Source: an uncultured Phascolarctobacterium sp.
Lineage (GTDB): Bacteria; Bacillota; Negativicutes; Acidaminococcales; Acidaminococcaceae
Direction: 5' to 3' (one strand)
NCBI RefSeq assembly: GCF_900545535.1
Contig: NZ_UQZN01000010.1
Length of the DNA stretch: 64,000 nt
Part shown: positions 1 to 36,051 of the stretch, in pieces
How the letters are laid out: every line of letters begins with the position of its first letter
Numbering within the stretch: position 1 is the first letter of the stretch
Notes under the pieces: model-generated
The model's input: the letters and a program-made list of their open reading frames with translations, nothing else
Database searches by the model: none
What the model was told of the DNA's origin: nothing
Program-made: the position numbers and the translations under genes

Positions 1-1929
1 CAAATTATTGTTGCTCGTTCCGCCAACATTAGCAATATCCTTACGATCGAATAAATTATCGACATCAAAGGTAGCCGTCATATTTTTAGCAACCTTATAA
101 CCAAGATGTAAATTAGACACTAAAAGCGGCGAAGATATTTCTGTTACGGTAATTTTTTCACTGCTGACGCCGTTTTTAAAACGATTACCCCAATAGCTCA
201 GGTTTAAGGCCGCACTAAAATCACGATTCACATAATTTACACCGCCGTTTAGCTGATAACGTCCTAAAGTATCGCTCCAGTCCTGACCTTCTTTATACAT
301 ACGCTGCGGCTTGGCAAACACTGCGCCTACATTATAAGTAAAATGCTTATCGACATCCTGTTCATACCGCAGTTCAATACCAGTATTGCGATATTTTGAA
401 GCATTCATCGTCTTAGATCTTGTACTGCCCCAAACAGAAACAATTTGGTCTTTGATATCTGTCCTAAATGCAGTAAGGTTCAACCGCCTTCCGTTTTCGT
501 TATATTTATAACCAACTTCATAATTCCAACCATATTCCGGCTTTAAATCCGGATTAGGTTCTATCATATTACTGCCATAATAAAGATTACGGAATGTAGG
601 CATCCTGAACGATTTGCCAACGCTTGCATAAACAGAATTATGTTCATCAAATTTGGTTATAGCCTGAACCTGCGGCAAAAACTCATTATAGTCACCGGCA
701 TCAGAACGGAATAAATCCTCACGCGCACTAAAAACTATATTTGTTGCCTGACTCAGCTTACGGTCATACGATCCATATAATGAAAAGCTATTAAGCGCAT
801 AAGTACCAAAATGAGCCTGCGGCTTTAATGCACTGCTACTTGAGTTAGAATTACTAAATTTTTGATTATCATTAACATAAGTTTCTCGTTTAGCGCTGAT
901 ACCAATTAACCCTGTTGCCTTCTCACTACGCCAAACTTTTTTCGTATCCAGCCCATACTGCTTCTGGTCACTTTTCTCCCACTCTACATTCATCGGATTC
1001 ACTACAAAATAATCCGGATTTTCGATTCGTCTCTGATTGTAATAAACTTTAGACTCCCAGCCGTTTTCATCATTATATGCTATCTGTGCAAAATGCTCAC
1101 GGTCATCATACATAAAATGTTTTAACAGCATTTCATCAATATCGTTATAATTTATCGAATATTTCTTTTTATTGAACATATAACTGAATTTAAACCGGTC
1201 ATCAAATTTATAGTTAAAGGCCAGATGATCTTTTTTGCTATCGCCAAAACCAATATAATAGCCAGTCTTAGCAGGAGAATTAATTGTTAAATCACCAATT
1301 TTTTCCGTCATATTGCCGGTAGAACCAAACTCATTTCTTCCAAGAGCCAGGCTTGCTTTACCCATACCTATAGTGGCAGCGTAATCACGCTGTCCTTTGT
1401 TTCCGGCAGCTACACGCAGCGAATTTTTCATCTGAGCTTTAGTTATAATGTTAACAACTCCGCCCAATGCCTCGCTGCCGTAGAGCACTGCCCCCCCACC
1501 CTTGACAATCTCTACTCTTTCCACTTCATCCAAGTTAAGCATATCCAAATGATTGACATTATTAAAAGAAGCAGGCACACCGTTGATCAAAACCAAAGTC
1601 CCACCGTCAATACCGCGCAGATTGATCTGGCTGCTGCCGGTTATCCAGTTTTGATCATGCGGCCCCATATTGGTAAAATAAACCCCGCCCTTGTATTTCA
1701 GGGCATTTGCCACATCGCTGGCACCGGTTTCTTTTAACTGTTCACCTGTATAAACAACAGTATCAGCAGGCGTATCCAAATTACTTTTTTCATACCCCAG
1801 GGCAGTCACATTTATTCCATCCAAAACGAATTCCGATAAATTTTCTTCTGCATAAGCCGATCCTGCTAAAAAGCTCGTTCCCAAAATCACTGTACACATC
1901 AAGCGTCCCAATTCAAATTTTTTCACCAA
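1..1929 (-). CDS. TonB-dependent outer-membrane receptor (BtuB/siderophore-receptor family), C-terminus runs off the window start
   Basis: Minus-strand frame is open from an RBS (AAGGAG) plus TTG/GTG start near 1929 to position 1. Translation shows a signal peptide, the plug motif (DTPADTVVYTGEQL...IRG...VLINGVP...ERVEIVKGGGAVLYGSEALGGVVNIITK) and barrel motifs (NLFDRKD). It is missing from the M-start ORF track because it is truncated at the window edge. Confidence 0.85.
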   Translation of the reverse strand, partial: MVKKFELGRLMCTVILGTSFLAGSAYAEENLSEFVLDGINVTALGYEKSNLDTPADTVVYTGEQLKETGASDVANALKYKGGVYFTNMGPHDQNWITGSSQINLRGIDGGTLVLINGVPASFNNVNHLDMLNLDEVERVEIVKGGGAVLYGSEALGGVVNIITKAQMKNSLRVAAGNKGQRDYAATIGMGKASLALGRNEFGSTGNMTEKIGDLTINSPAKTGYYIGFGDSKKDHLAFNYKFDDRFKFSYMFNKKKYSINYNDIDEMLLKHFMYDDREHFAQIAYNDENGWESKVYYNQRRIENPDYFVVNPMNVEWEKSDQKQYGLDTKKVWRSEKATGLIGISAKRETYVNDNQKFSNSNSSSSALKPQAHFGTYALNSFSLYGSYDRKLSQATNIVFSAREDLFRSDAGDYNEFLPQVQAITKFDEHNSVYASVGKSFRMPTFRNLYYGSNMIEPNPDLKPEYGWNYEVGYKYNENGRRLNLTAFRTDIKDQIVSVWGSTRSKTMNASKYRNTGIELRYEQDVDKHFTYNVGAVFAKPQRMYKEGQDWSDTLGRYQLNGGVNYVNRDFSAALNLSYWGNRFKNGVSSEKITVTEISSPLLVSNLHLGYKVAKNMTATFDVDNLFDRKDIANVGGTSNNNL

Positions 1930-2134
1930 AATACAGCTCCTTTATCACTTACTTTGATATCATAAATCAAACCATTTATCGATGTTTATTTATTAATAAG
2001 CTCTTATTTATGATATCTATTCCCATTGAGTTTGAATTTTAACATTCATAATTTTAACAGTCAATGTTTTTGAATTTTTGCCGATAAAATATTCTTTGTG
2101 CCTACAGTCAGTAAATTGGCATAAACACGCCCTT

Positions 2135-2215
2135 CTTAATACTACTTATAAGTATTATTATCCATATCAAAAAATCTTTTTGAAGAAAATACTACTTATA
2201 AATAGAATAATAAAG
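2135..2215. repeat. Two copies of a 13-bp direct repeat (ATACTACTTATAA) about 45 bp apart in the AT-rich leader of the TBDR gene; possible operator or promoter element
   Basis: Read directly: aatactacttataagtatt ... aaatactacttataaatag, 200 to 280 nt upstream of the receptor start. Confidence 0.25.
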
Positions 2216-2255
2216 CCGTTGATGCATCAAATGTATCAACGGCTTTATTATTTGT
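2210..2255. terminator. Rho-independent terminator (bidirectional hairpin) after the 2264..2635 gene
   Basis: AAAGCCGTTGAT gcatcaaatgt ATCAACGGCTTT, followed by a T/A-rich run on either strand. Confidence 0.6.
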
Positions 2256-2263
2256 CTGTCCTT

Positions 2264-2635
2264 TTATTTCTGCTTATTCGCCTCAAAAAAAGCGTTATAA
2301 TCCTCAACTACTTTATTAGCGCTTGCGATCGCCTTGTTCCGCTGGTCAATGATCTTGTTCAAATCATTGGTAGTACCGTCAATATACTTCTGCACCGCTT
2401 TCAAATAATTATCAACAGCGGCAATATATTCAGTTACGGCCTTAGCGTCTTTTAACGACTCCGGCTTTACAGGCACTACCGGAACAGCCTCTTCAAGCAC
2501 AGGATATACCGCCGTTAAATTGGTAGCATTCGGGTCGACTGGCGTTTCAGCCTGTTTTTCTTCTGCAAAACCAACCGCTGCCAGACTAAAAGTCAATACC
2601 ACAGCCAAAAATAAAGTTGTAATTTGTTTTCTCAT
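2264..2635 (-). CDS. Small secreted or periplasmic protein of unknown function with a signal peptide
   Basis: 123-aa ORF. N-terminal MRKQITTLFLAVVLTFSLAAVGFA signal peptide. Lys/Ala/Glu-rich helical remainder. A terminator follows. Confidence 0.55.
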   Translation of the reverse strand: MRKQITTLFLAVVLTFSLAAVGFAEEKQAETPVDPNATNLTAVYPVLEEAVPVVPVKPESLKDAKAVTEYIAAVDNYLKAVQKYIDGTTNDLNKIIDQRNKAIASANKVVEDYNAFFEANKQK

Positions 2636-2665
2636 AATGCACCATCCTTAATCTATTGATGACCT

Positions 2666-2884
2666 TCAAACGTCATCAATATTTTTTTCTTTTGCTTTCA
2701 ACTTGTCAAGCTCTGCTTCCGCCTGCCTGAAACACCTATAACTGCAATAATACCTGCGCAGCTTGTTGATCGTCCTTTTATAAGTATGCAAACTTTTATT
2801 ACCAAAAAATTCTTTGCCACAGCAGGCACAATTCATCGTTCTGCTGTTTAAAGTACTATCAAGATTATCATATCGTGTCATCAT
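2666..2884 (-). CDS. Small Cys-rich (zinc-ribbon-like) protein
   Basis: Internal start MMTRYDN avoids overlap with tonB. CxxC...C..C pattern (NCACCGKEF...YYCSYRCF) and a basic C-terminus. Confidence 0.35.
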   Translation of the reverse strand: MMTRYDNLDSTLNSRTMNCACCGKEFFGNKSLHTYKRTINKLRRYYCSYRCFRQAEAELDKLKAKEKNIDDV

Positions 2885-2931
2885 CGCAGTCTCAATTCCA
2901 AATTTTTTCAAATTTACCACTCCAACAAATA

Positions 2932-3717
2932 CTAATGCAGTACAAAATTGACCGGCATCGTAATATAACAACGTACAGGACTGCCATATGTATCCTTAGC
3001 CGGGCTGAAGCTCCAATTATAGACAGCCTCAACTGCCGCGCCGTCAAGAGCCTCATTGCCGCTGCTGCGGGCCACAAAAGCATTTTCCACGCTGCCGCCG
3101 CTGCTCACCAGCATCTTTACATACACCGTACCCTCGATCTCACGATTTCTGGCCGCAGCCGGATAACGTGGATCTGTACTGGAAACCAAATAAGGAGGCG
3201 TTACCGGAACGCCGCTGCCGCTGCCCTGACCGGCTCCCTGACCACTGCCGCTCCCGGAACCGCTGCCACTACCCGAGCCGCTGCCTTCACCGCTGCCCTG
3301 ACCTGTTCCTGCCCCGGTCCCTTCACCGCCGCCAGTGCCGCTGCCGTCAGCTTCACCGCTCTTAACATTGCTTTGCGCAGCTTCACTCGCTGTATTGTTT
3401 TGCTGCGTCTGACGCTGCTGCTCCTGCTGCGGCGGCTTTTGTTTCTGATCTACGATATCATCAGCTTTAGGGCGAGCCAGCTGCGTCTTTTCCACCTGCT
3501 GCTGCGCGGCGCCTGGCTGTTGATTTTCGGCCCCTTTTACAGCGGCAGCGCTGCCTTTACCACCGCCGCCACCGCCGCCACCCAAAGTAACCTCTAAAAT
3601 CTGCGGCGGCCTTTGTGTAAAACGGTATCCCAAAACACCCAGCAGAGCAGCGGCAATAATATGCACTGCAAGCGCAATGGCAACACCCTTGCCAAAGCGT
3701 CTGCCTCTATCCGTCAT
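2932..3717 (-). CDS. tonB: TonB energy transducer with an unusual Gly/Ser-rich and Gln-rich linker
   Basis: N-terminal TM helix (VAIALAVHIIAAALLGVL). Gly/Ser-rich (G-S dipeptide) low-complexity linker. C-terminal TonB domain (PPYLVSSTDPRYPAAARNREIEGTVYVKMLV...SSGNEALDGAAVEAVYNWSFSPAKD). Translationally coupled to exbD (3714/3717 overlap). Confidence 0.85.
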   Translation of the reverse strand: MTDRGRRFGKGVAIALAVHIIAAALLGVLGYRFTQRPPQILEVTLGGGGGGGGKGSAAAVKGAENQQPGAAQQQVEKTQLARPKADDIVDQKQKPPQQEQQRQTQQNNTASEAAQSNVKSGEADGSGTGGGEGTGAGTGQGSGEGSGSGSGSGSGSGSGQGAGQGSGSGVPVTPPYLVSSTDPRYPAAARNREIEGTVYVKMLVSSGGSVENAFVARSSGNEALDGAAVEAVYNWSFSPAKDTYGSPVRCYITMPVNFVLH

Positions 3718-4127
3718 TTGCCATCACCCAGATCCGTTGCCAAGCCAAAGCGTGTTACCCCCGCGCCCTTCAATTCATCCATCAGCTTGATAACCGTTTT
3801 ATAATTAGCCTCGCCGTCAGCTCGGATAATCACCGAAAAAGCAGCATCACGTTTACTCTCAGCCGCGGCATTGGCCACCAGCTGTTTCATTTCGATCTTA
3901 TTATCCTCCAAATACAATGCGCCATCTTTTTTAACCGTCACAGCAAAATTACTTTTGCTTACAGTCTCCGAATTCTGCGCCACCGGCAGCCTGATCGGAA
4001 TAGTCTTGATCTCGCTCATATACATAGTACTGACGATAAAAAATACCAGCAGCAGAAAAATCATATCAATCATCGGACTCAGCATCAGCTGCGGCGGCAA
4101 GCTTTGTTTTCTAGGTCGTCTGCGCAT
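3714..4127 (-). CDS. exbD: ExbD/TolR biopolymer transport protein
   Basis: 137 aa with a single TM helix (MIFLLLVFFIVSTMYM). ExbD-family length and architecture. Sits between exbB and tonB. Confidence 0.85.
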   Translation of the reverse strand: MRRRPRKQSLPPQLMLSPMIDMIFLLLVFFIVSTMYMSEIKTIPIRLPVAQNSETVSKSNFAVTVKKDGALYLEDNKIEMKQLVANAAAESKRDAAFSVIIRADGEANYKTVIKLMDELKGAGVTRFGLATDLGDGK

Positions 4128-4142
4128 TTTCTACACCGCCCC

Positions 4143-4781
4143 TCAGTTTTTACTGCCGCCGTTTTTGGCCTGAACGATATCGATCAACACATTGGCAACC
4201 TCGTAAATATTCAGCGAAGCAGTTTTCACCTTACTCGACAAATACGCATAAATGCACATGCCCATGATCGCGATACACAAACCGAAAACCGTAGTGATTA
4301 AAGCCTCGCCGATACCGGCAGTTACCGCCATCGGATTCTGCGCCCGTTCATTCAAAGCGTTGAACGAACTGATCATACCCGTAATAGTACCCAAAAGACC
4401 AAGCATCGGCGCCAGACCGATAACCACACTCAGATAATCAAGATTCTGCTCCATCCCATCAATGGCCCTGTCAGCCTTAGAATAAACGATCGACTCAAGC
4501 CTTTTGCCAAGATCCTCGTTGATATCCAGCGTCTCCACTGCCAGCTCAGCCGCATCACCCTTATTCACCCCGGCAAATTCGCGTGCCCCGACGATATTGA
4601 AATCATTCATCAAATGGCAGAACTCCATAACAAAAGCCGTGCTTGAAAGCGCCTTTTTATAATACAAATACCGCTCCACACCAATAGCAATAGCGGCAAT
4701 CGAACACAGCAGCAACGGCCACATACAAGCCCCGCCCCTTTGAAAATAATCTACAGCACCGGCAAAAATACCCATTTTCAA
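4143..4781 (-). CDS. exbB: ExbB/TolQ/MotA-family proton channel
   Basis: 212 aa, three TM segments, ExbB-like C-terminal half (GLAPMLGLLGTITGMISSF...MAVTAGIGEALITTVFGL). Confidence 0.85.
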   Translation of the reverse strand: MKMGIFAGAVDYFQRGGACMWPLLLCSIAAIAIGVERYLYYKKALSSTAFVMEFCHLMNDFNIVGAREFAGVNKGDAAELAVETLDINEDLGKRLESIVYSKADRAIDGMEQNLDYLSVVIGLAPMLGLLGTITGMISSFNALNERAQNPMAVTAGIGEALITTVFGLCIAIMGMCIYAYLSSKVKTASLNIYEVANVLIDIVQAKNGGSKN

Positions 4782-4792
4782 AAACCTCCCAA

Positions 4793-5770
4793 TTATTTAA
4801 ATCTTTCCGGATAGGCCGCTTCCGCCAGATCCCTGATCGCATAAACTATATAATGAGTCGTACTATATAAATACGTATCACGCAGCTGCACAACTCTTTT
4901 ATTTTTAACAGCATTCACACTTTGATAAGCCCGGTTCTGCAAAATCTCCTCCCGCATTTTCGACGGATCCTGCTCGTTATCATACTTCCAGCTGGGAATA
5001 ACAAGTAAATCAGGATTGAGCCTGATCAGCGTCTCCTCTGAAAAAGTAGCATTAGGCGGCAAATCATACTCAGCCACCACATTCCTGACATTAGCATAAT
5101 TGCAAATATCAGCAAAAGTAGTCCCCCTGGCCCCAAACGGCCCCATATAAGAAAGCGCCATCACGCTGATGCATTCTTCTGCCGGCATATTGCCGACCCT
5201 GGCTTGTACAAACGCCAGCTCCTTCTCCATCTTTGCCACGATCTTCCCACCGGCAACACGCTCATCCACAACATTTGCCAGCTCGCAAATAGTCTGCTTG
5301 ATCTCCTTCACCGTAGTCGGAGTTTTATAAACATAAACAGGCACTTTCGCACCGCGCAAAAGCTCCACAAAATTAAGATCAGTCCAGTCCGGGACCAACA
5401 CCAGATCAGGCTGCTGCGCCAAAACAGACTCCAAACTGCCGCTTTGCACCCGCCCTTTGACCCGCTCCGCTTTAGCCGCAGCAGGCGAGATACCAGCGTC
5501 ATCTGCCAAATAAGTCAACGCCGCGATCCGCTCAGGCTCCACCATATCCAACAGTACCTCATCAGCACTCAACCCCAGCGATACTATACGCTGCGGCTTA
5601 TATGTAAAATCGATCCGTGTTTTAGTCGCATCTGCAACGCTGTAACCGCCGCGTCCTGAAGCCGGAGTCTTGCTTTCAGTGGGCTTACCACACCCTGCAG
5701 CAAACACAGCCGCAACAACGCAAAAAGCAACCAGTACCGCCCTTAATCCCAGCCTGTATTTTTTTATCAC
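4793..5770 (-). CDS. Periplasmic substrate-binding lipoprotein, class III (BtuF/FecB/HmuT-like); no cognate permease or ATPase nearby
   Basis: Lipobox FAAGC after the signal peptide. Two-lobed PBP fold signature (KPQRIVSLGLSADEVLLDM...PDLVLVPDWTD). Lies in a cobalamin-riboswitch-controlled operon. Confidence 0.8.
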   Translation of the reverse strand: MIKKYRLGLRAVLVAFCVVAAVFAAGCGKPTESKTPASGRGGYSVADATKTRIDFTYKPQRIVSLGLSADEVLLDMVEPERIAALTYLADDAGISPAAAKAERVKGRVQSGSLESVLAQQPDLVLVPDWTDLNFVELLRGAKVPVYVYKTPTTVKEIKQTICELANVVDERVAGGKIVAKMEKELAFVQARVGNMPAEECISVMALSYMGPFGARGTTFADICNYANVRNVVAEYDLPPNATFSEETLIRLNPDLLVIPSWKYDNEQDPSKMREEILQNRAYQSVNAVKNKRVVQLRDTYLYSTTHYIVYAIRDLAEAAYPERFK

Positions 5771-5773
5771 AAA

Positions 5774-6766
5774 TTAGCCTCCTTCATCACCGCCCGGTAC
5801 CACTTTACCGCAAGCGGCAAGCTGCAGCGCGATGCTCTGTTCAAAATCATTAAAGTCATTATAAGCAAGCTCATGCACCACATAATCAGGACTGATCGCC
5901 CGCAGCAGCTTCTGCACTGCCGTATCAGAAAACGGCCTGTGCTGATCTATTTTTATTACATGCTTCATCCGCTCGATATTACTGCACTTATCATCATACA
6001 CACGCTTAAAAGTTTTTACATATTCACCGGAAAGCGAACAATTTAAATGTAAACCCCTGATCAGCTTTCTATCCTGACCCAAAGCCTTAACGATCTTTAA
6101 AATATACTCGATCCCGTCCCGTTCCAACTGCAGACTCGGATCAGTATTCATCAAATGCCCCGTGTCCAGCATAATACCAACATTCTTATGTGTGATCTTT
6201 TCAAAAAAAGCCCGCACCACAGCCGGATCAGTAAGCCGCAGCCCCGGCCACCACAAATTTTCAAATAATACCAGCACATCCTCAGGGATCTCATCAGCCA
6301 CCCTGTTAAAAACGGCAGCGGCAGCGGTCACGATCTCCAGATCACTGTGCTTAAACTCAAAAGTAAAAACCTCTTCCAGCGTACACTCAGCTATATGCCA
6401 CACCAGATACTCCGGTTTTTCGACCAGAGCCGACTTGATATTGGCCCTGATACTACGCAGCCAGCCCATACAATAAGTAGTGCCGTAATACTCCTGCAAA
6501 GCCTCTTTCGACGGAAAAAACCTCTGCAGCGTTTTTTTATCATTGCGATACATCGCCAGCCACATCGGCCAGTAATTCAAATGCACCCCCACAGCCAGAT
6601 GCTCAAAAGACTCAAAATAAGGCACGTTCCTGTAAACCATCAGCTCGATCCCATCAAGGCCCAGCCCCGCAACAAACTGCTCCAAAGTTTTACCGGTTTT
6701 TAAAACAGCCTTCTCCTGCCCCGGCACCACACAATAATTAAACAGGTGCTTCACCTTGCGCCTCAT
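5774..6766 (-). CDS. Xylose-isomerase-like TIM-barrel protein (sugar phosphate isomerase/epimerase family)
   Basis: 330 aa. Motifs such as IMLDTGHLMN and GLHLN are typical of the AP-endonuclease-2/xylose-isomerase TIM-barrel fold. Coupled to the downstream binding protein by a 3-nt gap. Confidence 0.45.
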   Translation of the reverse strand: MRRKVKHLFNYCVVPGQEKAVLKTGKTLEQFVAGLGLDGIELMVYRNVPYFESFEHLAVGVHLNYWPMWLAMYRNDKKTLQRFFPSKEALQEYYGTTYCMGWLRSIRANIKSALVEKPEYLVWHIAECTLEEVFTFEFKHSDLEIVTAAAAVFNRVADEIPEDVLVLFENLWWPGLRLTDPAVVRAFFEKITHKNVGIMLDTGHLMNTDPSLQLERDGIEYILKIVKALGQDRKLIRGLHLNCSLSGEYVKTFKRVYDDKCSNIERMKHVIKIDQHRPFSDTAVQKLLRAISPDYVVHELAYNDFNDFEQSIALQLAACGKVVPGGDEGG

Positions 6767-6960
6767 ACAGTCACCGCCTCAGGTTCCTCGCTGTTATCAT
6801 TACTGCGCATTTTTTTACTGCGGGCCGCCGCTCCCCTCTGAGAACATTTAAACCTTAACCTGTTCACCTCGCGTAATAAAGCAATGTAGCTTGCTTTATC
6901 AACAGTGATCATTGTATCGTCATTTTTTTCAATCTCTTTAATGATCTTCTTTAATTTCAT
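6763..6960 (-). CDS. Small hypothetical protein, first gene after the riboswitch
   Basis: ORF overlaps the TIM-barrel gene start by 4 nt (ATGA coupling). Start uncertain (MKLKKIIKEIEK... or the upstream GTG). Confidence 0.3.
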   Translation of the reverse strand: MKLKKIIKEIEKNDDTMITVDKASYIALLREVNRLRFKCSQRGAAARSKKMRSNDNSEEPEAVTV

Positions 6961-7019
6961 ACCCGTATCAGGCTGCGCAGCAAAACAGCCCACCCTCCTT
7001 CAAATGACTTGCGCCGTGT

Positions 7020-7063
7020 ATCCCAAAAACAAAACAGGAAACTGCCAATGCGTCAGTTTCCTG
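7020..7063 (-). terminator. Riboswitch expression-platform terminator hairpin
   Basis: Minus-strand RNA CAGGAAACUG acgcauugg CAGUUUCCUG followed by UUUUGUUUUUGGG. Confidence 0.55.
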
Positions 7064-7210
7064 TCAAAATACATCATCACCACGCACCAGGATACACAGC
7101 CGCCAAGCTGCAAAACACAGCAAAACGCGACAATACCGTTTTTTTAAAACCAATAAAAACAGTACATATGTATCCACCTTGTGCATCGCAAGTCATCACG
7201 GATGTTAAAA

Positions 7211-7345: not shown

Positions 7346-7506
7346 CAAGCAATCGCTTTTGGACACCTGCTTTCTTACCATATTAAATTTTAAAATTTGA
7401 TAAAGTCAGCTTATTCATAATAAATTTTAAATAAACTATACAGTCATTATAAACTTCATGCTTTTTGTAGTCAAGCAAAAATTCTAAAATTCACTTTATT
7501 TCTTCA

Positions 7507-8427: not shown

Positions 8428-8430
8428 TCA

Positions 8431-8958: not shown

Positions 8959-9022
8959 CGCCCGCGCCCCCTTTCACCTGCATCAACTTTTATTACAATG
9001 TCATAATTCAGTATATTATTTA

Positions 9023-27215: not shown

Positions 27216-27221
27216 TGTATT

Positions 27222-28581: not shown

Positions 28582-29364
28582 ATGCCTGATTTTGTCAGTG
28601 ATTCTATTTTTAAAGACGCATTCTTAAGGGCTTCTCGTCATTATATAGAGGCATTAGATTTGCCTGCATTTGATTCGAGGCGTTCTTCTGATGCGAAAGA
28701 GGCTATTGATTCTGCTGCCTGTATCAACAACAGAATGCTGCAAAGCTTTGCCGCCGATTTGAACGAGCAGCAAAAAAGCGATGTTTTGAATTCAACTTTA
28801 TTGGCTCAATTAGCGGCAGATAAAGCTTATCCAAAAGATGAACACGGCCGTTATGACGTGAAAGGCTGGTACAATAAATTTTCAGAGGTTCTGCTGAATT
28901 TAGGCTGGGTAAGCCAGAATACGGCTTTCTGGCAATATAAAATACATGGTAAAAGCTTTACGGCCGACAAGGCTATTTTAGAAATCATCAACGGCCTGCT
29001 GCAAAACAACGCCTTGCTTTTAGCGCAGGCAACGATCAATGCTTTAAAAAATTTGCCCGAAAATGATTCTAAGCTCACTCTGTTTAAATTTAATACGTGT
29101 TCTGACCAAATGGGTAATATCAGTCTTGGTGTCTGCACGCAAAAGAACAGTCTGATAGAGTATGATTTTGCAGCGCTTTATCTGGAGACAAAAAAGAATT
29201 TTAAGCAGATTTTGTTTATTGATTTTTCAACTTCTGATTTTAAGCTGTTCGCAGGCACAAACACTATCACTCTTAATCCCGACGTTTACAGCATCGTTCG
29301 CGATCAGGTAGCGCAAAAGCTTCACGACAGGGTTGGCAGTTATCTTGCGGGGCTTGATATTTAA
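28582..29364 (+). CDS. Hypothetical protein
   Basis: 260-aa ORF preceded by SD AAGGAGG. Followed by a strong terminator. No recognised domain. Confidence 0.5.
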   Translation: MPDFVSDSIFKDAFLRASRHYIEALDLPAFDSRRSSDAKEAIDSAACINNRMLQSFAADLNEQQKSDVLNSTLLAQLAADKAYPKDEHGRYDVKGWYNKFSEVLLNLGWVSQNTAFWQYKIHGKSFTADKAILEIINGLLQNNALLLAQATINALKNLPENDSKLTLFKFNTCSDQMGNISLGVCTQKNSLIEYDFAALYLETKKNFKQILFIDFSTSDFKLFAGTNTITLNPDVYSIVRDQVAQKLHDRVGSYLAGLDI

Positions 29365-29380
29365 GGAGTATATATGTTAA

Positions 29381-29420
29381 TGGCAGGGCCTATAAGTGCC
29401 CTGCCATTTTTTATTTTTTG
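29381..29420. terminator. Rho-independent terminator shared by convergent genes
   Basis: GGCAGGGC ctataagt GCCCTGCC TTTTTTATTTTTTG. Confidence 0.65.
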
Positions 29421-30691
29421 TTGTTATTTATATATTCTAGCGTATTGATCTGATCGATAAGCAGCTGCATAAAATTTTGCCAGCCTCTTATACCGGCAAA
29501 AAAGATGTTTTTTGATTTTATTTTACAGGATGGCATGGAAAAGTTTAAATATAAAGTTTTGTCAAAATCGCCAATTGCCATTCGTTCTCTTTCACTGCCT
29601 AAAAACAGCTGGTAATTATCAGGTTTTAATTGCTCCAATACCATACTTTCGTCCCAATAGCGATATTTATTACTACAGCTGTCATTTTCCTGTATACTTC
29701 TTTTTAAATAAAATTCCTCAGCCAGCAAAAGTTCACATTCACTGTTTTGTATTCCCCTAAGTATACTATCGGCTATTGAGCAGGGTGCTGTTGTAATTAT
29801 GCGTTGTAATCTGTATTCTAAATAGTTATGTTTTACCAGGCAGCATTCATCAAAAATATCCTTTGCAGCTATTTCTATCTCGCTGTTAACAGCTTTTAAT
29901 TTTGGTGGCTGTTGTAATGCTTCACCTACAGCCTGCAGCCATGCAACAGTATTTGTAAAGCCATATGGCCAGGGAGCTATAATATATCGCTGCCCTGTTT
30001 GTTCATAAATACTTTCGGCGATCAAGCTGCCCATTTCTGGTGTCAGTACTATATTCAGTGCAGCTTCTGATAGTTTTTCCAGTTCTGCCAGTTCCAGCTG
30101 ATCTTCACCTAGTACAATACCTATTTCGTAACCTGCTGCTGAGAGAAGTCTTTTTATTTCTGCTAAATCTCCCTGCCAATGTGGAAAGCATGTACAGATT
30201 CCCAAAAGGTTGACTTTATTTTTTTGTCTGCTTGTAGAAACTTTAAAAGTACTTTTTTTGAGAAGCTCCAATAGCGCTTTTTGATAGCCATTTGCAAAAG
30301 CTCCTGTAAATCCACCTGTTTCTATGGCCAGAATAGGGCAAGTTACATTATTTTTTTTGCAAATCCCTTCTATATCGTCACCGATAAGGCTCATGGAACA
30401 ACTGGTTAAAACTGCAAGTAAGCTTGGATTGTTTACGTTTAATACTTCTGCCAGGCTGGCTGATAATGATTCTTCAACTCCATATAAAATATCTTTTTGC
30501 CTTGCTTCTGAACAGAAGAGCCTTGTTTCATAGTTTTTTACTGCATTTGTAAGTTCGCGTTCGCCTATTACTGCGCACCATCTGGGGCTGTTAAGGATAA
30601 CGCTTGTATTTTTAACGCTTAATATTGCTGCGGCTGCTCCAATCATTTGGCAATATCCTGTACATGGGCGAAATTTATTCAAATTATTCAT
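29411..30691 (-). CDS. Nitrogenase-like NifK/NifN/BchB-like subunit, paralog 2
   Basis: 426 aa. FRPCTGYCQMIGAAAAILSVKNTSVILNSPRWC. LTSCSMSLIGDD and CPILAIETGG motifs. Paralog of 18157..19449. 8-nt overlap with the D-like gene. Confidence 0.75.
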   Translation of the reverse strand: MNNLNKFRPCTGYCQMIGAAAAILSVKNTSVILNSPRWCAVIGERELTNAVKNYETRLFCSEARQKDILYGVEESLSASLAEVLNVNNPSLLAVLTSCSMSLIGDDIEGICKKNNVTCPILAIETGGFTGAFANGYQKALLELLKKSTFKVSTSRQKNKVNLLGICTCFPHWQGDLAEIKRLLSAAGYEIGIVLGEDQLELAELEKLSEAALNIVLTPEMGSLIAESIYEQTGQRYIIAPWPYGFTNTVAWLQAVGEALQQPPKLKAVNSEIEIAAKDIFDECCLVKHNYLEYRLQRIITTAPCSIADSILRGIQNSECELLLAEEFYLKRSIQENDSCSNKYRYWDESMVLEQLKPDNYQLFLGSERERMAIGDFDKTLYLNFSMPSCKIKSKNIFFAGIRGWQNFMQLLIDQINTLEYINNNKK

Positions 30692-31961
30692 GGATAAGAC
30701 TCCTGTTTTCCTTAAATAACAGATATAATTTTTCCAAAAATCTTATACTGCCGCCGATACCAATTCGTTTTCTTTTTATGCAATATTGATGTTTAAATGT
30801 TTCACGATAGTCACTTGTAATGATTATATCTTTTTCTGCATCTATTGGCAAAGGATAGTTTTCGTGATCTATTTTTAACTGCAAATTGTTTTTTGATATG
30901 AAATCTACGTATTCAGATTTTTCTTTTGCGGTGAGTTCGTTTAGTAAAATTACATGTTTTAGTTGTATACCAGCTTCCTGCAATAATGCAATAAATTCCA
31001 GCAGATTCCAAAATTTTATAGAGTGGCTGATAGCAAGCACGCAGCTTTTGCCATTTAAATAGCTTCGTAATTCAGTTATTTTACTCTGCCAGCGTTTTGT
31101 TTCGCATAAAATGGCTTGATCCGCAAGTTCTTTTTGATTGAGTTTAGCTCCCAGTTCTTGTAAATAAGCCAGCGTTTCCGTAATCGTCAATGGCAGACGT
31201 TTTTCAATGAACGGAATCTGCAGTTTTTGGGCAAAACCGGCAGCAAAATATTTATATTCATTTAATTTACTGTCAATAATAGAGTTCACGCCAACTACAC
31301 TGGCACTGCTAAGTTCCTGCATCTCTTTTATCGTCATCCCGCATGGCGGCAGCATAATATCATCAATGCCAAAATAATGGTACATTCTTCTTATTTCTTC
31401 TATGTCTTCTGTCATTAAATAGAACTTGTTAATACCAAAAATAACTGCACTTTTACTATTTTTAATAGCAGAAGAAGTCATAAATTTTTCCAGAAAATAC
31501 TTTGTTGTAAGCAAAAGCCCTTCCTGCTGCTGATTACTCATAAAACCGGCTCCGGGAATATGTATTACGGGTATTTTAAAATTCGCTTCTGTCTTTGCGC
31601 ATATCGCTTGAATATCATCACCTATGACACCAGCAGCACAACCTGATAAAACTACCAGGCATTCAGGGTTCTTAGCTTTGATTATCTCAGCCAAACTATT
31701 TTGCAGCAGTTTTTCTCCGCCAAAAATAGCTTCTCTATCTGTGATTCCTGTAATAAAAAGGTTATCATAATTTGGTGGTAATTTCTTTTTATATCTAAGT
31801 CTTATTCTTCGCCTGCTTTCAAGCAGAGCGTTGTACACTATGTGCGAGCACGACTTAGGTGCATGCAGTACGACTACTATTCCTTTATTAAAGGCAACCG
31901 ACATATAGATGTCACTTAAGTTACAATGAATAACTTTTTTACGATTTGTTTTCTTTATCAT
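30684..31961 (-). CDS. Nitrogenase-like NifD/NifE/BchN-like subunit, paralog 2
   Basis: 425 aa. KVIHCNL...HAPKSCSH. LSGCAAGVIGDD. Paralog of 19436..20716 (clearly homologous along the full length). 4-nt overlap with the binding-protein gene. Confidence 0.75.
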   Translation of the reverse strand: MIKKTNRKKVIHCNLSDIYMSVAFNKGIVVVLHAPKSCSHIVYNALLESRRRIRLRYKKKLPPNYDNLFITGITDREAIFGGEKLLQNSLAEIIKAKNPECLVVLSGCAAGVIGDDIQAICAKTEANFKIPVIHIPGAGFMSNQQQEGLLLTTKYFLEKFMTSSAIKNSKSAVIFGINKFYLMTEDIEEIRRMYHYFGIDDIMLPPCGMTIKEMQELSSASVVGVNSIIDSKLNEYKYFAAGFAQKLQIPFIEKRLPLTITETLAYLQELGAKLNQKELADQAILCETKRWQSKITELRSYLNGKSCVLAISHSIKFWNLLEFIALLQEAGIQLKHVILLNELTAKEKSEYVDFISKNNLQLKIDHENYPLPIDAEKDIIITSDYRETFKHQYCIKRKRIGIGGSIRFLEKLYLLFKENRSLIHE

Positions 31962-32947
31962 ATCTGTTTTGCCTGCTTTATCGATCCAATTTTTGCAAAA
32001 TATTCTGGATATGTTTTTTGAGCTATGTCTAAGATACCGTCACCTATATATTGCGAAGCCGCATATCTGTAGCGATCTTTTATGATAATGACATTATTAT
32101 TTTTGATTGCTTTGATGCTCTGCAGTGCCGGGTCTTTTAAAACTTCTTTTCTAAAAAGTACGGTATCGCCTTCCTGGGTCGAACTGTAATCTGGAAACAT
32201 CAAAACGTCAGGGTTGACTTCTACTATTTTTTCTTTGCTTAGATGTTCACCACGAACAAGGCCCGCTACGGCAGCGCCGTTGATTACGCCGGCATTGATA
32301 CAGATGTCGTTGAACAGACCTTCTGCACTTCCAAAAACCCCCAGCAGCGAATACCCCATCAATATCTTTTTTTCTTCTGCCGGTATTGCACCGATCACGT
32401 CTTTTACAAGCTTTGTTTTATGATCCAATTCGTCAATTATTCTGTTTCCCTGCTGCTGTTCATTTACAGCCACCGATAAATTAATTATTCTTTGACGTAC
32501 CATGTCCAGCGTGGTAGGCACTTTGGTTATATATACCTTTAGCCCCACATCTTTTAAGGCTTGGATAAATGCTGTGTTTGAGTTTTCCTGCACGATCACA
32601 AGGTCGGGTTTAAGGGCAAGAATTTGTTCTACGCTTACTTTTTGCGGAAGTTTCAGGGGAATCTGCGCAGCTTTATCGATAATCAATGATGTTTTAGGAT
32701 CAGCAGCTGGTTCCGAGATTGCTGCAATGCGTTTTAAAGGAACCATATCTGTGAGTATTTCTTCAAGACTGAGCGTTGTGGCATAGATTCGTTTAGGGGA
32801 TTCGCTAAAATGCAGAATATTCCCTTTGTCGTCAGTTACCTGATACTGAGTTTGAACTGCCGTGTTTTCAATAACAGTGTTTGGTTTTTCAAAGCTGCAG
32901 CCTGTTACCGCTAGTATCATGATTATTGCTAAAATAAAACTGCGCAT
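31958..32947 (-). CDS. Periplasmic substrate-binding lipoprotein, class III (BtuF/FecB-like), paralog
   Basis: Lipobox VTGCS. Motifs LKPDLVIVQE and KVYITKVP. Confidence 0.8.
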   Translation of the reverse strand: MRSFILAIIMILAVTGCSFEKPNTVIENTAVQTQYQVTDDKGNILHFSESPKRIYATTLSLEEILTDMVPLKRIAAISEPAADPKTSLIIDKAAQIPLKLPQKVSVEQILALKPDLVIVQENSNTAFIQALKDVGLKVYITKVPTTLDMVRQRIINLSVAVNEQQQGNRIIDELDHKTKLVKDVIGAIPAEEKKILMGYSLLGVFGSAEGLFNDICINAGVINGAAVAGLVRGEHLSKEKIVEVNPDVLMFPDYSSTQEGDTVLFRKEVLKDPALQSIKAIKNNNVIIIKDRYRYAASQYIGDGILDIAQKTYPEYFAKIGSIKQAKQI

Positions 32948-32979
32948 TCTGTTCTCCTGTCAAAAATTTTTATTGATTT

Positions 32980-34884
32980 TTAAAATAAAATTTTATAACC
33001 GATTTCAAAGTTTCTACCTAAAGAAATATACCTGGAAGATACATGGGAAGTAATATCTCGTCTATTTAATAAATTATCGACATTTAAGAAAATTTCATGA
33101 TTTTTTACAGGTCTATAGGCGGCATGTAAGCTTGTGTAGAAATAAGGTTTAATCTTCTCTTGATATTTTTGCAAAACACGATCTGCCATAAAACTTCCAT
33201 TTAGACTTACATTAAATTTATCCTGCTGATAATTTAGTCCGCCGTTCAACAACCATCTACCATAATTTCTTTTCCACTTACCATCATCTTCATCTGCAGA
33301 TTTATATTTAGGATTACTGTAAGATACGCCCCAATTACTACTGAATCCATTTTTACCAGTTACTTCACAATTAATTTCAATTCCCATGTTTTTTGTATCC
33401 TCATTGACTGCATATGTTTCTCCTGTTGCTGCGACAGTAGCACCAGTAATAAAATCTTTTACATCACTTTTAAACAGCGCTAACTTCCAGGAATGAATAC
33501 CAGAAATATATTTTAAACCAGTTTCATAATGCATACCAACTTCCGGTCTGATTTGTGTATTTTTTATTATCTGATCTTTACCATACATATCAGTCAATGT
33601 TGGCAGTGTAAAAGATTTACCTACACTGGCATAAGCACTTAAATCGTCTGTCATTTTATGTAAATACTGAATCTGTGGAGTAAATTCACTGTAATTAGTA
33701 CCATCTGGACTACTGCCTGTCCATGTTTCTCTCGCTCCAAGGATCAGATTATTTTTTTTATCAAATTTATGATCTACCTGTGCAAAAAAAGAATATACAT
33801 TTCTGTCATAGTCATACTCTAGTTTCGGTTGTTTTTTATAGGCAGGATCATAGAAGTTATAATAATTATAGCCTTCGTTGTACATTTTTACCCCAACAAG
33901 TACTGTATCATTTTTAGTTTCAAATTCTTTCGTTACATCTAAGCCCATTACCTTATCATCATTTCCGTAGAAATATGCATCTTTAAAAATTATATTATTT
34001 TTCCAATAATGATATTTGGTATCAGAACTGGATTTATGATAAAAAGCATTAGCATTCCAGCCGTCTTTATGATAACTTAGTACAAATTTATATTCTTCTT
34101 TATCTAAGAATCTTTTATCAGTTGGCAAGCCAGTACTTGTTTGATTATAGCTTCTTTTATAATCATAATTATTGTAATCGGCAGTAACTCTCCACGCATC
34201 ATCAAATTTATAATTCATAGACAGGATAGTTTTTTCACCGCCTAAAAAATTAAAATATTTATCACCTTCTGAAGTATGGTATATATTACCTTTTTTATTC
34301 CAGTTGGCACCAATCCCTAATTTACCTGCTTGTAAAGATGTCGCATATTTTTGTACTCCATAATTACCTACTGTTGCTGAGATACTATTAGTTCTTTTAT
34401 TTTTTGTAATAATGTTTATAACACCACCAGTTGCATCACTGCCATAAAGCACGGCACCACCACCACGTACTATTTCAATACGCTCTACATCTGCAATATT
34501 TATTCTGTCAAGATCATAATAACCGGTTCTGACATTTAATGGCACACCATCAACTAACACCATAGTTCCACGCCGTTTTCCTCTAATTAAAAATTCACCG
34601 CCGCCATCTCCTGCAGTTTCTGATTTATAGACAATACCGGCAGCATATTTTAAAGCACCTTCAACTGTTGTCGCACCTGTATCTTCCAATTGTTTACTTG
34701 TATAAACACTTGTCGTAGCAGGTACATCTAAATCTCTTTTTTCAGTTCTGGTAGCAGTTACAACCATTGGATCCAGAGTAAAAATCTGTTCCGGTTCTTC
34801 TGCATGTACTGCTGTGCCCCCCCAGATGACACTACCAGTTATCAGTGCTGCCATAAGCGCGCTTTTGTTCAAGCTTTTCTTCAT
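32980..34884 (-). CDS. TonB-dependent receptor (BtuB-like), paralog
   Basis: SD AAAGGAAG before MKKSLNKSALMAALITGSVIWGGTAVHA. TonB box LDPMVVTATR. Plug (VRGGGAVLYGSDATGGVINIITK). C-terminal IGYKILF. Confidence 0.85.
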   Translation of the reverse strand: MKKSLNKSALMAALITGSVIWGGTAVHAEEPEQIFTLDPMVVTATRTEKRDLDVPATTSVYTSKQLEDTGATTVEGALKYAAGIVYKSETAGDGGGEFLIRGKRRGTMVLVDGVPLNVRTGYYDLDRINIADVERIEIVRGGGAVLYGSDATGGVINIITKNKRTNSISATVGNYGVQKYATSLQAGKLGIGANWNKKGNIYHTSEGDKYFNFLGGEKTILSMNYKFDDAWRVTADYNNYDYKRSYNQTSTGLPTDKRFLDKEEYKFVLSYHKDGWNANAFYHKSSSDTKYHYWKNNIIFKDAYFYGNDDKVMGLDVTKEFETKNDTVLVGVKMYNEGYNYYNFYDPAYKKQPKLEYDYDRNVYSFFAQVDHKFDKKNNLILGARETWTGSSPDGTNYSEFTPQIQYLHKMTDDLSAYASVGKSFTLPTLTDMYGKDQIIKNTQIRPEVGMHYETGLKYISGIHSWKLALFKSDVKDFITGATVAATGETYAVNEDTKNMGIEINCEVTGKNGFSSNWGVSYSNPKYKSADEDDGKWKRNYGRWLLNGGLNYQQDKFNVSLNGSFMADRVLQKYQEKIKPYFYTSLHAAYRPVKNHEIFLNVDNLLNRRDITSHVSSRYISLGRNFEIGYKILF

Positions 34885-34989
34885 CAAATTCAACTTCCTT
34901 TCAATTTTCAATTTACTTTCACCTTGCTTTAAAAGTGTTAAAAAATAGAAAAGCCCCCTTTTCCAAAAAACAGATAAGGAGGAATAGAG

Positions 34990-35115
34990 GCTAAATTCGT
35001 GCCTGTTCTCCCCTATACTGTCTCTCGCAGAAATAGAGTTACTGGTAAAAGCTGACTTAAGCAGTATTTTACTGCTAATACAGCGGCGGGACCGTGTTAG
35101 ATTCTCACTAACTTT
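34990..35115 (-). promoter_or_regulatory. Divergent or possibly shortened cobalamin-riboswitch-like leader
   Basis: Minus RNA GUGAGAAUCUAACACGGUCCCGCCGCUGUAUUAGCAGUAAAAUACUGCUUAAGUCAGCUUUUACCAGUAACUCUAUUUCUGCGAGAGACAG aligns with the 17830..17945 aptamer (CCCGCCGCUGUA, hairpin, GUCAGC, identical 3' CUGCGAGAGACAG). The GGUG-containing P2/P3 segment appears reduced. Confidence 0.4.
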
Positions 35116-35220
35116 TATTTATTATACATTACCAGTATCAAATATCAAATTTATTTTTCTACTATGTGTGATATAATACTATGTATAGTCATTAGACAGT
35201 CAAGAGGTTGGTGAAAATTT

Positions 35221-36051
35221 ATGGAGAAAAATAAAAAAAAATTATTTACGACCGGTGAGCTGGCTTCTTTATGTAAAATCCACAGAAAAACTTTGCTTTT
35301 TTATGACAGGCTTGGTTTGATCACACCGGAATTTATCGATGCTAACGGTTATCGTTATTATTCGAGAAGGCAGTTTTTTTCTTTAGAAATCATTTTGGCA
35401 TTACGTAAATTAGATGTATCATTACCTGAAATAGCGGAATATCTTAAGCATAAATCCACCTCTAATTACAAAAATTTACTTACAAGACGTGCCAATATAT
35501 TAGATCAGATTTTATCTGATCTTCAAAAAATGCGTAATGAACTCAGCGAGAGAATATGTTTTTTGGAAAATACCGAAACTTTTCCTCTGGAAATAATAAC
35601 TTTGATAAATGAAGAGGAAGATTATCTTTGTCTAAGTGATCCGGTGCCACAGAATGCTGATTTAAAAATCAGAACAAAAATTTCCGCTAAACATTTATTA
35701 ACTTTATCAGATTATATAACTTTTAATAATCACGTTTCTGGTTATATACTTGATAAAAATTCTTTTCTGGCTTGTGAACGTCCGTATACTAAATATTTTT
35801 ATCAATCCTTTACACAGCCTTTTGACTTACCTTATTTTTTCCTTAAACCTGCAGGATTATATGCCACAATTTACTTTAAAGGTATTTATTGCTCGTATGG
35901 CAAACCTTATATTGATCAGTTATATAGATATCTACAGGAAAACAATTTACAGGCTGTCAGTGATATTTACATGACTTCGATCAGAAATCATTGGGTCACT
36001 GATGATAACGGCAGTTATTTAAATAAATTATCAATACAGGTAAAAAAATAA
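35221..36051 (+). CDS. MerR-family regulator with a GyrI-like effector domain, paralog of 23713..24552
   Basis: LFTTGELASLCKIHRKTLLFYDRLGLITPEF...ANGYRYYSRRQFFSLEIILALRKLDVSLPEI. Same architecture. Divergent to the TBDR operon. Confidence 0.75.
   Translation: MEKNKKKLFTTGELASLCKIHRKTLLFYDRLGLITPEFIDANGYRYYSRRQFFSLEIILALRKLDVSLPEIAEYLKHKSTSNYKNLLTRRANILDQILSDLQKMRNELSERICFLENTETFPLEIITLINEEEDYLCLSDPVPQNADLKIRTKISAKHLLTLSDYITFNNHVSGYILDKNSFLACERPYTKYFYQSFTQPFDLPYFFLKPAGLYATIYFKGIYCSYGKPYIDQLYRYLQENNLQAVSDIYMTSIRNHWVTDDNGSYLNKLSIQVKK

Follow-up and report, generated by a model that had tools for sequence, protein, structure and literature searches.

In a 2026 review, the function of uncharacterised nitrogenase-like (NFL) systems is named among the greatest challenges of the field, and genetic context is described as being of little help (PMC13474568). 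The same text presents the Group IV NFL enzymes MarBHDK and IsrBHDK as catalysts of the reductive cleavage of imported small sulfur compounds, with substrate transporters encoded alongside and with induction upon nutrient limitation. For Group VI of the Elusimicrobia, Meheust et al., 2020 predict tetrapyrrole reduction from context, and Heliophilum fasciatum carries a single NflH with five NflDK pairs (PMC9147875). Among enzymes that act on tetrapyrroles, Bacteroides CobN-like proteins remove iron from haem (PMC10100974), and the Akkermansia protein CbiR, a PF01261 phosphodiesterase often encoded next to transporters, cuts the nucleotide loop of cobamides (PMC7733943). Phascolarctobacterium relies on a B12 enzyme to convert succinate to propionate (PMC7568257, PMC10881866). 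Here we describe an uptake island in a 64,000-nucleotide stretch of an uncultured Phascolarctobacterium sp. (contig NZ_UQZN01000010.1; this whole stretch is hereafter called the window), in which two pairs of nitrogenase-like genes, D and K, lie within operons for TonB-dependent receptors (TBDRs) and periplasmic binding proteins (PBPs). In open-access papers and bioRxiv we found nothing linking nitrogenase-like proteins to B12 or haem uptake and no published function for this family; a 2021 paper mentions 'nifD without nifK' in Phascolarctobacterium and Selenomonas as outliers only.

We propose, with a probability of roughly 60%, that these genes belong to a modular tetrapyrrole-acquisition island of about 54 kb, made up of receptor/PBP modules, a shared importer and D/K reductases fed by a NifH-like protein. 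The island is linked to B12 by five cobalamin riboswitches in the window (RF00174, E 1e-7 to 2e-26). The D/K genes are tied to uptake because the PBP gene overlaps the D gene by 4 nt in both D/K operons (A and B, below), because transport genes occur at 61 of 78 related loci, and because the order riboswitch-NifH-D-K-FecCD-ABC is found in Sporomusa. The D/K pairs are most likely cytoplasmic reductases that process imported tetrapyrroles. Genes across the window were assigned with Pfam and riboswitches with Rfam (gathering score), and NCBIfam supplied the curated cut-offs. Nearly all genes between 1 and 36 kb lie on the minus strand, and the features on which the argument draws are the following.

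1–1929, minus: TBDR0, a TonB-dependent receptor cut by the window edge (658 aa as a full gene on contig L094; Plug and barrel called on contigs L094 and L095).
2207–2251, no strand: terminator-like hairpin with a 20-bp stem between the 123-aa gene and TBDR0 (converted from L094 10385–10429).
2264–2635, minus: 123-aa secreted protein, final gene of the riboswitch-controlled TonB operon.
2932–3717, minus: tonB (TonB_C, 7.7e-21).
3714–4127, minus: exbD (ExbD, 1.7e-29).
4143–4781, minus: exbB (MotA_ExbB, 1.5e-27).
4793–5770, minus: PBP1, a class III BtuF-like binding lipoprotein (Peripla_BP_2, 9.6e-21; lipobox AAGC; both lobe glutamates).
5774–6766, minus: predicted endonuclease-IV-like TIM-barrel metalloenzyme (PF01261, 33.5 bits).
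7196–7385, minus: cobalamin riboswitch at the head of the TonB operon (RF00174, 102.6 bits).
11876–17074, minus: autotransporter-TBDR fusion, 1732 aa in a single open reading frame (ORF) (Pfam Autotransporter, Plug and TBDR).
17433–17613 and 17837–17957, minus: tandem cobalamin riboswitches upstream of the fusion receptor (RF00174, 42.6 and 43.8 bits).
18157–23552, minus: operon A, with TBDR_A (21735–23552), PBP_A (20713–21696), D-like (19436–20716) and K-like (18157–19449) genes (Pfam).
23673–23703, minus: promoter-like TTGACA-19 bp-TATCAT facing operon A (sequence reading).
23713–24552, plus: divergent MerR-family regulator A, 279 aa (MerR_1, 1.7e-9).
24804–27074, minus: solo BtuB-like TBDR (24804–26708; Pfam) with its own cobalamin riboswitch (26898–27074; RF00174, 109.1 bits).
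29411–35130, minus: operon B, with AdoCbl riboswitch (35006–35130), TBDR_B (32980–34884), PBP_B (31958–32947), D-like (30684–31961) and K-like (29411–30691) genes.
35173–35203, minus: promoter-like TTGACT-19 bp-TATTAT upstream of the operon B riboswitch (sequence reading).
35221–36051, plus: divergent MerR-family regulator B, 276 aa (MerR_1, 3.5e-12).

The window contains five TBDRs, TonB-ExbBD, three BtuF-like lipoproteins and two D/K pairs in addition to the five riboswitches. An initial annotation of this DNA had reported TonB-ExbBD, three binding lipoproteins, an autotransporter-TBDR fusion and four receptors; Pfam recovered every one of these, including each individual receptor, but the total is five. 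All five have Plug and TonB_dep_Rec_b-barrel domains (Pfam), with the TonB box LDP(V/M)(L/I/V)VTA. The shared signal peptide and TonB-box region described earlier for the receptor paralogs is equally real, with 65–79% identity in the first 60 residues against 34–38% overall. TBDR_A is, by its score, BtuB-like only and short of a BtuB equivalog (TIGR01779, 138 bits against a cut-off of 599.7). The three binding proteins of the window match Peripla_BP_2 at E 1e-20 to 2e-25 and have the lipoboxes AAGC, LSGC and VTGC. The D/K pairs span 18157–20716 and 29411–31961 (PF00148 Oxidored_nitro, E 1e-40 to 1e-50), and in operon A the D and K genes overlap by 14 nt. Operons A and B, which are old paralogs, are 39% identical in D, 41% in K, 29% in the PBP and 33% in MerR. 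In the TonB operon, the riboswitch is followed by a 76-aa ORF, the TIM barrel, PBP1, exbB, exbD, tonB and two small proteins; TBDR0 lies downstream, behind the terminator-like hairpin. The label 'corrinoid/tetrapyrrole uptake island' given at the outset is supported by the riboswitches, BtuB-like receptors, BtuF-like PBPs and dedicated TonB-ExbBD, as well as the CbiZ, CobN, ChlID, CobO and CbiK genes of related loci.

Riboswitch leaders precede the fusion, solo and operon B receptors. The initial annotation had given two receptors a riboswitch of their own and did not count the operon B receptor as riboswitch-controlled. Upstream of operon A and TBDR_A, Rfam gave no riboswitch even at E ≤ 1. 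The tandem pair before the fusion is conserved in loci L007–L011. Tandem riboswitches also occur in the Sporomusa locus L043 (3202–3383/3543–3726 and 8226–8408/8738–8919), where they precede an extended receptor and a NifH-D-K operon, and in Sporomusaceae loci a stretch of 20 kb has four or five riboswitches, some of them in tandem immediately before NifH-D-K-FecCD-ABC. Both sigma-70-like promoters with 19-bp spacers adjoin a divergent merR start, and a 19-bp spacer is the MerR-type arrangement. The C-terminal domains of the MerR proteins (about 165 aa in regulator A) have no Pfam match; they may adopt a GyrI-like fold, an impression gained from reading the sequence only. We infer that expression of operon B would require both an inducer and a low cobamide level, as expected of a salvage route.

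The D protein has only 39 relatives in a search of 5.8 billion proteins, and 106 at E ≤ 1e-30 among 1.84 billion cluster representatives. A D-profile scan of one genome per species gave 156 relatives, with a best match of 67% identity (uncultured Phascolarctobacterium UMGS1431), and 78 loci were kept for neighbour analysis, with all their ORFs clustered. These loci are nearly all from Negativicutes (Phascolarctobacterium, Dialister, Selenomonas, Sporomusa, Pelosinus, Veillonella, Succiniclasticum, Megamonas and Anaerospora), and few come from bins labelled otherwise. The recurrent neighbours of D/K were as follows.

NifH-like protein: 58 of 78 loci.
Binding protein: 52 of 78 loci.
TBDR: 42 of 78 loci.
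CobN, the commonest enzyme neighbour of D/K: 38 of 78 loci.
FecCD: 35 of 78 loci.
MerR (divergent): 34 of 78 loci.
SPASM-type radical SAM protein: 30 of 78 loci.
CbiZ: 20 of 78 loci.
CN-hydrolase: 20 of 78 loci.
ChlI/ChlD: 14 of 78 loci.
TIM-barrel family of the type found in the window: 14 of 78 loci.

CobO, CbiK and ExbBD-TonB were likewise found among the neighbours, and B12 enzymes are present at 49 of the 78 loci. A common layout has a MerR gene diverging from NifH-D-K-PBP-FecCD-CobN-radical SAM-CN-hydrolase-TBDR, all read in one direction. Locus L011, the closest relative, is collinear with the window except for a NifH gene immediately downstream of K. At three loci (L004–L006, P0017), a MerR gene is followed by CbiZ-CobN-D-K and next by a riboswitch-controlled TBDR-PBP-ChlI-ChlD-NifH operon, the tightest link between D/K and a CobN-type chelatase that we saw.

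Three cysteines of D (C13, C38 and C108) and three of K (C17, C42 and C101) are invariant in 80–81 sequences. We take these six to occupy P-cluster-type positions by NifD/NifK numbering, and D/K for this reason looks like a working redox enzyme. The family has no conserved cysteine at the aligned FeMo-cofactor position (Cys275/His442 test), and D scores 48.7 bits against nifD, where the curated cut-off is 653; on these two grounds an identity as nitrogenase proper (NifDK, VnfDK or AnfDK) was rejected. Membership of DPOR, COR or CfbCD was rejected as well, all curated family scores being missed (BchN/B, BchY/Z and CfbD, 19–88 bits against cut-offs of 268–529). The closest solved relatives of the D profile are the 'Nitrogenase' entries 9d9u/9fmg, 9p1x, NifE and NifD. 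The new element is a small D/K family, restricted to Negativicutes, that is translationally coupled to receptor/PBP genes and placed under B12-riboswitch and MerR-type control.

The initial annotation had noted that the binding proteins come with no ABC permease or ATPase. Within the 64-kb window this stands: FecCD, ABC ATPase and NifH queries from related loci gave no tblastn match at E ≤ 0.01, none of the six frames contains an ABC signature (LSGGQ-type) or a NifH P-loop, and tblastn found no remnants of CobN, ChlI, CbiZ, radical SAM, CN-hydrolase, CobO or CbiK. A hydropathy scan identified ExbB as the sole polytopic membrane protein in 1–36.9 kb. For the island, however, the statement fails. 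The exact 123-aa protein of 2264–2635 retrieved two metagenome contigs, L094 (human gut, 100.5 kb) and L095 (149 kb), which are 100.000% identical to window positions 1–12635 and reach 7.7 kb further left than position 1. In leftward order they carry the full TBDR0 gene, an ATPase_2/DUF234 gene, PBP4, a 256-aa NifH-like protein, PBP5, a 334-aa FecCD permease, a 259-aa ABC ATPase and a third Oxidored_nitro pair (D3/K3). The permease and ATPase genes lie 4.6–6.4 kb left of window position 1. Because they sit just beyond the edge on contigs identical to the window, the absence of an importer is a window-edge artefact. The binding proteins are accordingly not orphans, and the alternative that inner-membrane transport is encoded elsewhere proved right, in the form of this NifH-PBP-FecCD-ABC_tran-D-K operon. 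A btuCD-like operon with a B12 riboswitch had been named as the observation that would refute the orphan reading, and this came true in part: the operon exists, but no riboswitch precedes it.

At family level, NCBIfam backs the assignment of these genes. The permease (L094 17235–18239, 4.6–5.6 kb left of the window; PF01032) matches FhuB, BtuC and FecD over its full length at about 250 bits (NCBIfam). In the ATPase (L094 18229–19008) the Walker and signature motifs GPNGSGKST, SGGESQR and LFLDEPT are readable, and it scores 190–260 bits against FecE, haem and corrinoid ATPases (FecE, 261 bits; NCBIfam). The NifH-like protein (L094 15477–16247, 2.8–3.6 kb left of the window) has CfbC as its best NCBIfam match at 342 bits, with nifH at 337 bits. 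Upstream of its operon, at L094 15317–15383 (about 2.7 kb left of the window), a perfect hairpin with a 20-bp stem overlaps a promoter-like TTGACA-17-TAAAAT; it could act as an operator or terminate transcription of the unit before it.

Two further contigs, L097 and L098, were retrieved with a DNA pattern taken from the end of L095; they are 99.1% and 98.4% identical to L094 in the overlap. At their left end, K3 is followed by genes for a ChaN-like haem-binding protein (PF04187), a sixth TBDR and a 223-aa protein; five tRNAs come next, and housekeeping genes lie beyond them. In these near-identical strains the ChaN-like and sixth TBDR genes (L097 2881–5659) lie about 9.2–11.9 kb left of window position 1. 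The island therefore extends over about 54 kb between two tRNA clusters, of which about 41 kb is in the window, where the right cluster lies at 41373–41604. In total it has six TBDRs (the sixth seen only in the near-identical strains), one TonB-ExbBD, five BtuF-type lipoproteins, the ChaN-like haem binder, three paralogous D/K pairs and a single FecCD, ABC ATPase and NifH-like gene each, these last left of the window. Contigs L090 and L091, about 97% identical, do not have operon A, the solo receptor or the autotransporter part, and L090 and L092 do not have the entire block from NifH to the sixth receptor. The G+C content is 34–37% in the operon B region (28000–36000) and about 49% in the housekeeping part. 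The low G+C, the similar flanking tRNA clusters and the strain-specific block indels suggest horizontally acquired modules.

In this clade it is normal for ABC sets to be incomplete. Of 42 related species loci that measure 18 kb or more, 33 encode a binding protein, and 11 of these have FecCD nowhere within 10 kb; 26 have FecCD, and 18 of these lack a nearby ATPase. We aligned 87 binding proteins from related loci, and both lobe glutamates, which we equate with E72 and E202 of BtuF, are kept in 84 of them, including all five of the island (three in the window), among them the one whose gene adjoins FecCD. One conserved glutamate per BtuF lobe forms salt bridges to permease arginines and so docks BtuF on BtuC. 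The binding proteins are, as judged by these residues, ordinary ABC-importer partners. They carry lipoprotein signals, and on the same reading of the sequence D and K have neither a Sec nor a Tat signal. To our knowledge, every characterised enzyme of the D/K superfamily requires an ATP-dependent NifH partner. This need, the invariant Fe-S cysteines and the missing export signal together place D/K in the cytoplasm.

We propose the following mechanism. Under cobamide scarcity, the riboswitches would relieve repression of operon B, the TonB operon and the fusion and solo receptors. Operons A and B would in addition be activated by the MerR proteins in response to substrate, through the 19-bp-spacer promoters. 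The receptors would differ in the corrinoid or other tetrapyrrole that they move through the outer membrane, and each ligand would be delivered by the cognate binding lipoprotein to a FecCD/ABC importer common to all. Once the ligand is in the cytoplasm, the D/K pair encoded in the same operon would receive electrons from the shared NifH-like ATPase and reductively convert the imported macrocycle into a form usable by the cell; an unsuitable nucleotide loop would probably be removed by the TIM-barrel enzyme. That one NifH-like protein should serve several D/K pairs has a precedent in Heliophilum fasciatum (PMC9147875). In a stricter version, each TBDR/PBP pair would be hard-wired to its own D/K reductase, and all would share the one NifH-like ATPase; an ATP-driven reduction of imported corrinoid or haem at very low potential could then yield a usable cobamide precursor from oxidised forms or from analogues of no other use to the cell, or labilise the metal for CobN-type (de)chelation. 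We put this version forward tentatively, as a proposal with about one chance in three.

Several observations weigh against the proposed island mechanism. Neither a riboswitch (even at E ≤ 1) nor a MerR gene precedes the NifH-PBP5-FecCD-ABC-D3-K3 operon, so it may not be co-regulated with the B12 modules. PBP5 is similar to the haem binder IsdE, and K3 is followed by a ChaN-like gene; the sole visible permease may therefore serve haem alone instead of being shared, and the third nitrogenase-like module looks haem-linked, not B12-linked. L090 and L092 keep other modules without the NifH/FecCD block, and in those strains an importer and NifH must be encoded elsewhere or the modules would idle. 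Finally, tetrapyrrole reductases stand further from D in sequence than do Nif/NifE and the unnamed 'Nitrogenase' PDB entries: BchB was matched only at E ~1e-4, and no BchN/ChlN or CfbD chain was among the PDB matches. Homology alone, as far as sequence comparison goes, gives no pointer to a tetrapyrrole substrate.

The most probable rival, which we nevertheless regard as unlikely, is that D/K does not act on the transported tetrapyrrole: the pairs might be reductases of small molecules, of the Mar/Isr type, or B12-independent substitutes for a B12-dependent step, with no more than B12-responsive regulation in common with the uptake genes. B12 riboswitches often control B12-independent isozymes, and such control would fit this rival, as would the best solved relatives of D (9d9u/9fmg, NifE and NifD, not DPOR/COR or CfbD). 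All six P-cluster-type cysteines are retained, as they are in most Group IV enzymes (PMC13474568). Against this stand the translational coupling of D/K to PBP genes in both operons and the repeated linkage to TBDR, PBP, FecCD, CobN, ChlID and CbiZ across Negativicutes. The recurrent neighbours noted include no genes of sulfur metabolism or of the NifB type, and where Mar and Nif have their complex-cluster cysteine the family conserves none.

Slightly less probable still is that the D/K proteins of operons A and B are non-catalytic, either cytoplasmic tetrapyrrole holders or NifEN-like scaffolds that receive the imported ligand. This would explain why neither operon has a NifH of its own; 20 of the 78 related loci likewise have no NifH nearby, NifE is among the best family matches, and the D/K fold is related to that of the binding proteins. 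However, L011 has its NifH directly after K, a NifH-like gene is present in the same island, and the cysteines of the inter-subunit cluster are invariant, which fits electron transfer.

An equally improbable alternative for the island as a whole is that it imports haem or iron-tetrapyrroles, and that the nitrogenase-like enzymes reduce ring or metal to release iron anaerobically. The leftmost module, with its IsdE-like PBP, ChaN-like haem-binding protein and lack of a riboswitch, agrees with this, and iron removal from haem is known for the Bacteroides CobN-like proteins (PMC10100974). The other modules are governed by five cobalamin riboswitches, however, and CbiZ, CobO and CbiK recur in related loci. 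Restricted to module 3, the iron reading has a real chance, not far short of even.

The weakest alternative, raised in the initial annotation, is that the binding lipoproteins are true orphans that pass their ligand straight to the nitrogenase-like enzymes with no ABC importer; it could draw on the lack of a permease or ATPase in the window, on the 4-nt PBP/D gene overlap and on the remote relationship of the Oxidored_nitro and Peripla_BP_2 folds (the D profile weakly matches the iron-binding PBP 4m7o, E 0.0017), but it is highly improbable given the FecCD and ABC_tran genes just off the window, the different compartments predicted for signal-less D/K and lipoprotein PBPs, the two lobe glutamates in 84 of 87 PBPs and a FecCD gene within 10 kb at 31 of the 52 related loci that have a PBP.

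The TIM-barrel enzyme of the TonB operon may extend the proposed acquisition route to the nucleotide loop. Its AlphaFold 2 model (predicted local distance difference test, pLDDT, 92.6) finds endonuclease IV enzymes as its top structural matches among PDB folds. The family, with more than 1100 members under generic public names ('TIM barrel protein', 'sugar phosphate isomerase/epimerase', 'hypothetical protein'), has the invariant residues H62, H124, E169, D201, H204, H240, D274, H276 and E299, in an order that we take to be the ligand order of the trinuclear site of endonuclease IV. The protein has no NCBIfam match. Like CbiR, it is a PF01261 protein with candidate His/Asp/Glu metal ligands, and its gene lies with corrinoid transport genes behind a B12 riboswitch; in contrast to CbiR, it has endonuclease IV as its nearest solved fold. 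The 282 CbiR homologs tabulated in the literature (PMC7733943) come from no genus of Negativicutes, and membership of the CbiR clade was unsupported at the BLAST level, the comparison being made through this table. By analogy, the protein may work like CbiR, as a candidate cobamide nucleotide-loop phosphodiesterase, and its family is a candidate new clade of cobamide phosphodiesterases.

The fusion receptor consists of a signal peptide, a passenger (about aa 41–650), an autotransporter beta-domain (659–903), a Gly/Gln-rich linker of about 100 aa, the TonB box ELGGLTVEAKRPDWEK, a plug (1044–1146) and a barrel (1269–1692). The autotransporter domain (PF03797, 2.4e-32) ends internally with ...GLDFSW and is followed by the linker, plug and second barrel, so that one chain has two outer-membrane barrels. 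Outer-membrane topology makes such a fusion feasible, since both ends of the junction would be periplasmic. The same one-ORF fusion is present in four further assemblies (L008, L010 and L094/L095) and in another species (L011, 91% identity), and in unfused relatives the same TonB box comes after a signal peptide of their own. In L089 the autotransporter (889 aa) and TBDR (826 aa) are split; we rejected this as a natural two-gene form because the break removes the last strands of the autotransporter barrel and the contig coverage is 2.7x. For the passenger, which has no Pfam domain, a search of 5.8 billion proteins gave only four homologs; we speculate that it is a tethered surface capture domain. 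The fusion suggests how a diderm Firmicute could tether such a domain to a receptor.

Two further features adjoin the receptor genes.

10427–11752, minus: 441-aa all-beta protein that always follows a fusion-type receptor (cluster c21, 7 loci).
27222–27659, minus: OmpH/Skp-like periplasmic chaperone adjoining receptor genes (PF03938, 6e-20).

A Sporomusa homolog of the 441-aa protein has a Sec signal peptide, whereas the window copy has none. Its single-sequence AlphaFold 2 model has a pLDDT of 35, and a BtuG-like surface or periplasmic partner is a conceivable role for this protein. In the middle of the island (7507–10265, minus) lie genes for a CHAT-domain protein, an N-acetylmuramoyl-L-alanine amidase (amidase_3), an Adhesin_E-like lipoprotein and a 211-aa protein, of which the CHAT, amidase and small-protein genes are kept in every strain variant examined. 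At the right edge (36088–36888, minus), a gene encodes a 266-aa secreted repeat protein with no family match; other Phascolarctobacterium contigs (cluster c36, L001–L003) have it close to their D/K operon too. The remainder of the window, 36–64 kb, is housekeeping: CitMHS, tRNAs, pyr-type ORFs, PPDK, glyQS, recO, era, ybeY and phoH.

Binding proteins without an importer are an ordinary finding, and this case illustrates how a window edge can produce an apparent absence. The context of D/K is unusually explicit for an NFL family, with B12 riboswitches and BtuB/BtuF-type uptake genes here and CobN, ChlID and CbiZ in relatives. Veillonella, Sporomusa and Selenomonas are culturable and Veillonella is genetically tractable; because the family occurs in these genera, D/K function is directly testable. 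If true, the hard-wired version would provide the first physiological function for this uncharacterised NFL clade and a new kind of cofactor salvage, and with it a previously undescribed way for Negativicutes to exploit foreign tetrapyrroles. Cobamide sharing shapes gut communities, and a reductive salvage route would alter the predicted corrinoid use of such bacteria.

Altogether, the island shares parts with several known systems. The Bacteroidetes hmu/btuS loci also link a TonB-dependent tetrapyrrole receptor to a CobN-type chelatase homolog (HmuS/BtuS), sometimes with a B12 riboswitch, but hmu loci have no nitrogenase-like genes, and the window itself has no CobN. The Group VI enzymes are, like D/K, uncharacterised NifH/D/K paralogs with tetrapyrrole-related neighbours and, in many loci, a radical SAM gene nearby. 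They belong to different phyla and do not have several P-cluster cysteines, whereas the window family has all six; the available portion of the source notes no uptake genes or riboswitches for them. With Mar/Isr, D/K shares P-cluster-type cysteines and a position beside transporter genes. The transporters of the island are instead of the TonB/BtuF/FecCD type for large ligands and under B12 riboswitches, and D/K has neither a NifB/MarB-type gene nor the complex-cluster cysteine. DPOR (BchLNB), COR (BchXYZ) and CfbCD have in common with D/K an Oxidored_nitro D/K heteromer, an inter-subunit Fe-S site, a NifH-like partner, the absence of FeMo-cofactor ligands and a tetrapyrrole gene context. The cluster ligands of DPOR are three cysteines and an aspartate, whereas the window D/K has six cluster cysteines, is closer to Nif/NifE-type sequences and is linked to import instead of biosynthesis. 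The E. coli-type BtuB-TonB/ExbBD and BtuFCD route has the same plug-barrel receptors with a TonB box, class III PBPs with both lobe glutamates, riboswitch leaders and, outside the window, a FecCD permease with an ABC ATPase. The components of the island fall far below the BtuB, BtuF, BtuC and BtuD equivalog cut-offs. Compared with that route, the island has six receptors and five PBPs for a single visible permease/ATPase pair, and it adds MerR regulators and nitrogenase-like genes placed within the uptake operons themselves.

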